IMG/VR virus record: IMGVR_UViG_2671180603_000013
Location: 1 to 11,186 of that record
DNA: 11,186 bases
Direction: 5' to 3' (one strand)
Source: a virus
Lineage: Duplodnaviria; Heunggongvirae; Uroviricota; Caudoviricetes
Under the pieces are notes generated by a model. That model worked only from the letters and a program-made list of their open reading frames with translations, ran no database searches and had not been told where the DNA came from. This document shows positions 5,431 through 6,045 of this stretch, in pieces (positions within the stretch are counted from its first letter, which is position 1; each line of letters begins with the position of its first letter). A program made the position numbers and the translations under genes.

Positions 5431-5449
5431 TCAGATGTGAGTAAACTCC

Positions 5450-5785
5450 TTATGGACTTTGTTGTTTTAGTCCATAAGGACATATTTGCAGAGTGCAACG
5501 GTTATTAAAGCATTCATTCAATACGTTATCTGTATTTGTAGGGCATTCCTGGCTGTTTTTGATTAAATTCCAGAATGTTTTATTGAATGGTACTACGTTG
5601 TAAATGGTTACAGGTAGCACTTTGTTATTGAGCATGATGCCTGTGTGAGTCAGTGTAAATATACTTTCAGGAGGTAAGAAAGCATCCGATTGATACCAGA
5701 TTATTAATTTTATTTTACTCCATATGACTGAAAAAGATATTCCGCATGATGGCTGGATAACTGTATCAATCACAATCCACTTCAT
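5450..5785 (-). CDS. hypothetical protein (111 aa) in an AT-rich moron island
   Basis: Minus-strand ORF with a good ribosome-binding site (AAGGAA, about 6 nt before the ATG) and a candidate sigma70 promoter upstream (TTTACA ... TATACT, + coordinates about 5826-5852). The island is visibly AT-rich relative to its flanks. Cys-rich C-terminal half; no family recognised. Confidence 0.45.
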
Positions 5786-6045
5786 TTAGTTTCCTTGTTT
5801 ATGCCTTGCTGGTGATGTTCTGAAAAGTATAAATGATATTTTTGAATGTAAACCATAGAGCAGAATTATTTTTCTGATGTTGTTTATTGTTTATTTAAAT
5901 GCAGGGTGGTTTATATCTCGTCTTGTAGTTTATCCATGCATATCTGCTTGATAATCAGGTTTTTATTTAAGGTATGGTTTTGTGTTTTTTCTGTATTACA
6001 TGTCAGGTATTTTAAAGAATTATTTTTCAGATGGTGGAAAGAACC

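Follow-up and report, generated by a model that had tools for sequence, protein, structure and literature searches.

The DNA analysed here, a stretch of 11,186 nucleotides from a viral record (hereafter the window), contains between positions 5425 and 6046 an island whose base composition departs sharply from that of its surroundings. Its GC content is 0.325 (0.327 for 5431-6045), against 0.495 for the whole window and 0.49 and 0.52 for the two flanks, the compositional contrast expected of a moron. It is the lowest-GC part of the window, and the 622-bp frame of minimum GC in the whole sequence, about 3.9 standard deviations under the mean, begins at 5414. An earlier reading made from the sequence only (the sequence-only reading) had pointed out both this drop and the presence of a sole substantial open reading frame (ORF), running on the minus strand against the phage late operon. 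Both observations hold. The ORF (5450..5785, minus strand) starts with ATG and encodes 111 amino acids followed by a stop codon; it is opposed to Q, nanS-p and the holin gene, which are all on the plus strand. No other ORF of at least 60 amino acids lies entirely within the island, the two further ORFs called mechanically in this region, 5906..6157 (plus strand) and 5911..6102 (minus strand), extending beyond it.

Judged by its sequence, the 111-residue product is IraL, an anti-adaptor of RssB belonging to the IraM/IraL/RssC family. It is identical at 111 of 111 positions to IraL of the uropathogenic E. coli strain CFT073 (c1429, formerly ycgW; WP_000871291.1), and the coding DNA is identical too. 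In CFT073, c1429 is the iraL gene (PMC12890032), and the gene for WP_000871291.1 is located in the potB-island prophage. The NCBIfam model for IraM, NF007393, gives 162 bits for a cut-off of 121, with residues 1-110 aligned on positions 1-113 of the 114 in the model; the IraM chain of PDB entry 8TWD (8twd_A) matches residues 1-78 with E = 9e-32, and the matching DNA carries the RefSeq label 'anti-adapter protein IraM'. The statement in the sequence-only reading that the product had no recognisable family is thus overturned. Annotation elsewhere is inconsistent: hmmscan of the protein against current Pfam-A returned no family even at E <= 10, at odds with the precomputed Pfam label that the protein database attaches to the family (PF11183 'PmrD'), and PHROG 4407, which matches IraL end to end (E = 3e-73), is labelled 'unknown function'. 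A search of PADLOC-DB gave no defence-system model match at E <= 1. The idea of a phage-resistance cargo was dropped on this ground, and the phenotype of phage resistance or toxicity suggested earlier finds no support. That the ORF might be a degraded piece of a larger gene, which had been named as the finding to look for against the cargo interpretation, was ruled out: its length is complete by comparison with 32 family members, and dN/dS values of 0.10-0.29 between iraL and four paralogous alleles show that the gene is under purifying selection.

The two edges of the island are well defined. The left edge is the GC-rich terminator (5394-5415, plus strand) of an STnc100-family prophage sRNA (5235..5424, plus strand; Rfam RF02076, 132 bits for a gathering score of 47). 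It was located by a terminator scan and by the homology between STnc100 copies, which stops there, the three copies in the window aligning as far as the terminator and then diverging. The right edge is the start of nanS-p, which encodes a DUF1737/SASA esterase. Only the first 40 bp of this gene are present (6047..6086, plus strand, with the ATG at 6047), the sequence being cut at a junction between 6086 and 6087; positions 6045-6086 match 8508-8549, the start of an intact nanS-p in the same window, at 90%. The gene order DUF3927 ORF, STnc100, iraL (antisense) and nanS-p was found in CFT073, E. coli 042, GN04133, AF39, E. albertii and ECMA0423. In every locus inspected the island lies between STnc100 and the nanS-p start codon, and canonical loci have a full or partial nanS-p after iraL. 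The window also contains what amounts to an 'empty' site, in which STnc100 (8077-8286) is followed by 222 bp without a gene and then by nanS-p (8509). When this site is compared with the iraL site, homology stops at the terminator and restarts at the nanS-p ATG, the STnc100 of the empty site being a diverged subtype, 70% identical. We used as a criterion the definition of a moron, in the sense of Hendrix and Juhala, as a promoter-gene-terminator unit inserted between genes that lie side by side in related phages. By its composition, its own promoter (see below) and its insertion between flanks that are adjacent elsewhere, the island is a moron, a convincing terminator excepted.

Several other features of this region deserve mention. 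All three STnc100 copies (RF02076) are on the plus strand, at 5235-5424, 7610-7799 and 8077-8286, with scores of 132, 124 and 161 bits; copies 1 and 2 are 96% identical and copy 3 is about 70% identical to them. STnc100 has been linked to the PasD sRNAs of Stx phages (2026 preprint). Two small cargo-like ORFs are located between the tRNAs and STnc100, one of 117 amino acids (4649-5002, plus strand; PHROG 2873, unknown function) and one of 43 residues that is DUF3927/TciB-like (5038-5169, plus strand; PHROG 1470, category 'moron, auxiliary metabolic gene and host takeover'). The tRNA genes at 4286-4361 and 7284-7359, which represent the usual cluster downstream of Q in Stx-like phages, are called tRNA-Met (CAT) by ARAGORN; the homologues of both in CFT073, E. 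coli 042 and AF39 are annotated in RefSeq as tRNA-Ile, i.e., with a lysidine-modified CAU anticodon.

The signals for expression of iraL are found within the island. The -35 hexamer TTTACA (5847..5852) and the -10 hexamer TATACT (5826..5831), both on the minus strand, are identical in CFT073, and the Stx2c-phage paralogue described below carries TATAAT at the position aligned with the latter. The spacer between them is 15 nt long, and this is why the promoter was missed by a consensus scan limited to spacers of 16-18 nt. 5' RACE of CFT073 iraL showed that the mRNA begins ACATCACCAGCAAGGCATAAACAAGGAAACCA (PMC4045071). This sequence corresponds to the minus strand of the window from position 5818, with one SNP at 5788, and places the transcription start 7 nt downstream of TATACT, in agreement with the promoter that had been proposed on inspection of the sequence. 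By homology the 5' untranslated region covers 5786..5818 (minus strand). The Shine-Dalgarno sequence AAGGAA (5791..5796, read 5796->5791 on the minus strand), also proposed earlier, lies 5 nt ahead of the ATG and inside the published mRNA, and is kept in the Stx2c-phage paralogue. An alternative promoter put forward by the scan, TAAACA-17-AATAAT at 5893->5865, was rejected because it does not match the published transcription start.

Upstream of the promoter, an AT-rich region (5853..6046, minus strand; GC about 0.30) is conserved with the gene and differs from CFT073 by two SNPs. Over the upstream 260 bp there are four SNPs relative to CFT073, at 5788, 5819, 5976 and 6033, of which 5819 is position -1 and 5788 falls after the Shine-Dalgarno sequence but ahead of the ATG. 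Alleles almost identical to this one (99.9% over 707 bp) are common. Positions 5881-5897 (plus strand), or -63 to -79 of iraL, carry a PhoP-box-like direct repeat, TGTTTA-TTGTT-TATTTA. It fits the PhoP box pattern with one mismatch and is the window's sole hit when at most one mismatch is allowed, for 0.15 expected, a weak statistic in AT-rich DNA; a similar repeat, CGTTTA-TTCTT-TGTTTA, is present at the aligned position in the Stx2c paralogue. The 2014 paper on iraL makes no mention of PhoP or of Mg2+ tests (PMC4045071). A check by eye for a Fur box upstream of iraL revealed one GATAAT hexamer only.

At the other end of the gene, the sequence-only reading had described a perfect hairpin of 11 bp overlapping the stop codon (5447-5480). 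The hairpin exists and its stem is indeed perfect, but it is 12 bp long, not 11. On the minus strand, arms at 5447-5458 and 5469-5480 enclose a loop of 10 nt and cover the stop codon (5450-5452). Its predicted free energy is -17.5 kcal/mol (z = -5.7), and none of 200 shuffled sequences folds as well, making it a candidate 3'-end stabiliser or weak terminator. The 5' arm encodes P-Y-G-L and the 3' arm lies past the stop codon that terminates both iraM and the Stx2c-phage paralogue, the TAA of these two genes being CAA in iraL, which lengthens the ORF by four residues, QQSP. Neither the Stx2c-phage paralogue nor K-12 iraM has the hairpin. In the two closer paralogues that share the extension, the stem has decayed (-8.7 and -4.8 kcal/mol, z = -2.3 and -0.45, respectively), and no compensatory changes in the stem were seen in the aligned and folded 3' ends of three paralogous alleles. 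The notion of a conserved RNA structure was rejected on account of this decay without compensation. We would give even odds to the reading in which the hairpin is a lineage-specific accident at the edge of the island, with no role in termination, and in which iraL transcripts end either at the antisense stem of the STnc100 terminator, about 30 nt beyond the hairpin, or by the action of Rho. The pattern of decay and absence just described speaks for an accident, as do the lack of a U-tract after the stem on the minus strand and the position of the 3' arm past the ancestral stop codon, where the change from TAA to CAA merely adds QQSP. Nevertheless, a perfect 12-bp stem is far beyond chance expectation, and it coincides precisely with the gene's end, where the terminator of a moron would be expected. 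The hairpin is a real inverted repeat that at best stabilises the 3' end of the mRNA together with the antisense STnc100 stem.

The function of IraL is known from the work of Hryckowian et al. (2014, mBio, PMC4045071), who showed that a protein identical to the window product binds RssB and stabilises RpoS. Deletion of iraL lowers RpoS in log phase, its half-life falling from about 5 to about 2.5 min; a fragment extending from -100 through the coding region, with the native promoter, expresses iraL and raises RpoS in K-12; and in two-hybrid assays IraL interacts with RssB's N-terminal domain only (PMC4045071). The coding sequence, ribosome-binding site, promoter hexamers and -100 region are all intact in the window. 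Taken with the deviant GC content and the defined insertion point in lambdoid prophages, the native promoter and the expression of the -100 fragment in K-12 bear out the earlier view of a horizontally acquired, autonomously expressed cargo gene. The gene, its function, promoter, horizontal origin and distribution were already published in 2014, and the structural mechanism of the family in 2023. What the window adds is annotation: a cargo gene that looked like an orphan is iraL, and current understanding is unchanged.

The predicted structure is in keeping with this assignment. AlphaFold2, run with 32 family members, gave a model with pLDDT values of 82-94 for residues 1-78 and of 42-51 for residues 80-111. 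The top Foldseek match of this model is the IraM-bound RssB structure 8twd_A (TM 0.91, rmsd 1.2 A), and PmrD structures come next. The N-terminal fold of IraL is accordingly predicted to be that of RssB-bound IraM, an antiparallel beta-barrel with a beta-hairpin and one alpha-helix, and this relation to IraM and PmrD agrees with PMC10844676. We also took the residues of IraM that contact RssB from the same source and read them against the alignment of IraL with K-12 IraM. Cluster I, which contacts RssB's N-terminal domain (I4, I6, W22, K26 and I42), is identical at all five positions; cluster II, facing the C-terminal domain, keeps three of five (T13S and L75I being the changes), and cluster III, facing the linker, two of four (H63N and I64V). 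Our own interpretation is that this pattern fits the published binding of IraL to the N-terminal domain only, which it does not prove.

From these data the following sequence of events can be proposed. In a lysogen growing exponentially, iraL would be transcribed from its own sigma-70-type promoter, as has been shown in the literature for the gene of the identical protein, and we infer that the window copy is expressed likewise. The 12-bp hairpin and the antisense STnc100 terminator stem may define or stabilise the 3' end of the message. IraL would bind the adaptor RssB at its receiver (N-terminal) domain, RssB could then no longer deliver RpoS to ClpXP, and both the half-life and the level of RpoS would rise, all of which has been shown for the identical protein. 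Since iraL is antisense to the Q-dependent late transcript, it would be a gene of the lysogenic phase, probably subject to collision with late transcription after induction. Overall, we put at about 0.93 the probability that this island represents the iraL moron carried by a lambdoid E. coli prophage, acting via RssB on RpoS. Through iraL, the prophage would reset the general stress response of its host, stabilising RpoS during growth, a trait that published work ties to uropathogenic E. coli and to Shigella.

Around the island, two lambdoid late-regulatory regions are combined in the window into a non-canonical mosaic. Positions 289-2232 read DUF968-RusA-Q', with Q' cut at 2232, and RusA is duplicated together with the first 200 bp or so of Q (1664-2232 and 2967-3535, 93% identical). 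The stretch 2233-2579 is multi-copy and probably IS-derived, with about 29,000 occurrences across E. coli genomes, many of them on plasmids. The block 2955-6086, which includes the island, is 98% identical to E. coli 042, and a methylase-tRNA-STnc100-nanS-p module follows after 6087. Homology to CFT073, E. coli 042 and AF39 ends at 6086; the 6086/6087 junction occurs in none of 5426 complete E. coli genomes, and the exact junction 36-mer is not in IMG/VR. The E. albertii and E. coli loci recovered in a GTDB scan have the canonical order. The junction reflects either a genuine rearrangement or a chimeric assembly.

Such a mosaic, with its duplicated RusA-Q', truncated nanS-p and junction seen in 0 of 5426 complete genomes, could belong to a decaying prophage in which iraL is intact but a silent or irrelevant passenger, unexpressed, for instance, through H-NS silencing of the AT-rich island or through promoter-proximal SNPs. 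A GC content of about 0.30, that of the upstream region, is typical of H-NS targets, and the SNPs at -1 and in the 5' untranslated region do distinguish the window from CFT073. We consider this improbable nonetheless: the coding sequence is identical to that of a functional allele, both hexamers and the sufficient -100 fragment are intact, the same allele is widespread and the family evolves under purifying selection. In addition, the junction is 268 bp upstream of the iraL start site, outside the -100 fragment. Even less credible is a main action on a target other than RssB, as a PmrD-like connector for another response regulator or as anti-phage or toxic cargo: PmrD, which binds the receiver domain of PmrA, does have the same fold (PMC10844676), and the PF11183 'PmrD' and PHROG 'unknown function' labels would allow it, but against it stand the RssB binding and RpoS stabilisation demonstrated for the identical protein (PMC4045071) and an identity to PmrD structures of no more than 14-20%, and neither PADLOC (E <= 1) nor Pfam-A gave a match.

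The part of the protein that is absent from the IraM crystal structure is the one most conserved in the family. IraL has five cysteines, C14, C81, C92, C97 and C102, and four of them lie within residues 81-102, in line with the Cys-rich C-terminal half noticed earlier. Among the 32 full-length members, which range from 30 to 100% identity, the invariant columns are M1, W3, W30, Y31, G49, P82, C92, C97, C102 and P103, and C81 is kept in 31. The tail motif C-P-x9/10-C-x4/5-C-x4-C-P-Y-G (residues 81-111, window 5450-5545) is the most conserved part of the family, whereas the C-terminal tail of IraM, which was cut off for the RssB crystal structure, was termed less conserved (PMC10844676). In IraL the tail is predicted to be disordered (pLDDT 42-51). 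The four cysteines could form a metal or redox site, or a sensor, that sets the stability or activity of the anti-adaptor.

The 622-bp island is found at a coverage of at least 80% in 1432 of the 5426 complete E. coli genomes, and about 3300 more match at the level of iraM only (about 71% nucleotide identity across the coding region). The protein family is small, with 85 clusters at 90% identity, and is restricted to Enterobacteriaceae (Escherichia, Shigella, Salmonella, Pseudescherichia, Cronobacter, Enterobacter and Intestinirhabdus).

The connector protein PmrD (PDB 4HN7, 2JSO and 2RQX) has an IraL-like fold (Foldseek probability 1.00, TM 0.71-0.72) at an identity of 14-20%. Like IraL, PmrD is a small protein that docks on the receiver domain of a response regulator. 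It differs from IraL in its target, PmrA~P, in the outcome, which is protection from dephosphorylation, and in having no C-terminal four-cysteine tail. RssC, the Salmonella 'IraM' (P0012-type), belongs to the same family as IraL, with 41% identity and the four-cysteine motif kept, but comes from another genus and extends further at its C-terminal tail; it has been reported to be restricted to Salmonella (PMC4045071). IraM of K-12 (b1160, also YcgW/ElbA; PDB 8TWD) is 62% identical to IraL over 107 amino acids and shares with it the predicted beta-barrel-plus-helix fold, the residues contacting RssB's N-terminal domain, and the C-terminal four-cysteine motif. K-12 iraM encodes the PhoP-dependent anti-adaptor of Mg2+ starvation. 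Its promoter and flanks are unlike those of iraL; it adjoins e14 and is not within a late operon, and it has neither the QQSP tail nor the 3' hairpin. IraM interacts with both RssB domains and is stress-induced, whereas IraL interacts with the N-terminal domain only and acts in log phase (PMC4045071).

The closest comparison is with CFT073, whose iraL shares with the window the promoter hexamers, the ribosome-binding site, the 3' hairpin, the left flank (DUF3927 ORF and STnc100) and the position upstream of the 5' end of nanS-p. The nanS-p remnant is 186 bp long in CFT073 and 40 bp in the window, where it is joined to a DNA-methylase module.

Finally, Stx2c, Stx2a and other Stx-converting phages harbour paralogues (e.g., WP_001303568.1; P0003) that are 75-76% identical to IraL. 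They occupy the same slot in the same orientation, antisense between an upstream terminator and nanS-p, and the promoter region is homologous to about -80, with the same ribosome-binding site. They differ from iraL in their upstream neighbour, which is stx2B in place of DUF3927/STnc100, and one allele encodes 107 amino acids and has no hairpin. Paralogues directly downstream of stx2B are found at 4003-4326 of the locus of the Stx2c prophage of O157:H7 (Z1815; L004), at 3001-3336 of three others (L016-L018) and in 41 phage records, in most of which the gene is without annotation; no functional study of this paralogue was found in the literature searched. STEC strains with high log-phase RpoS lack iraL (PMC4045071), and the stx2-adjacent paralogues could explain the raised RpoS of these strains. 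That this explanation holds jointly with a sensing role for the Cys4 tail and a response of the 'constitutive' IraL to PhoPQ is a doubtful proposition. The cargo slot used by iraL in the window is the one that carries stx in Stx phages.
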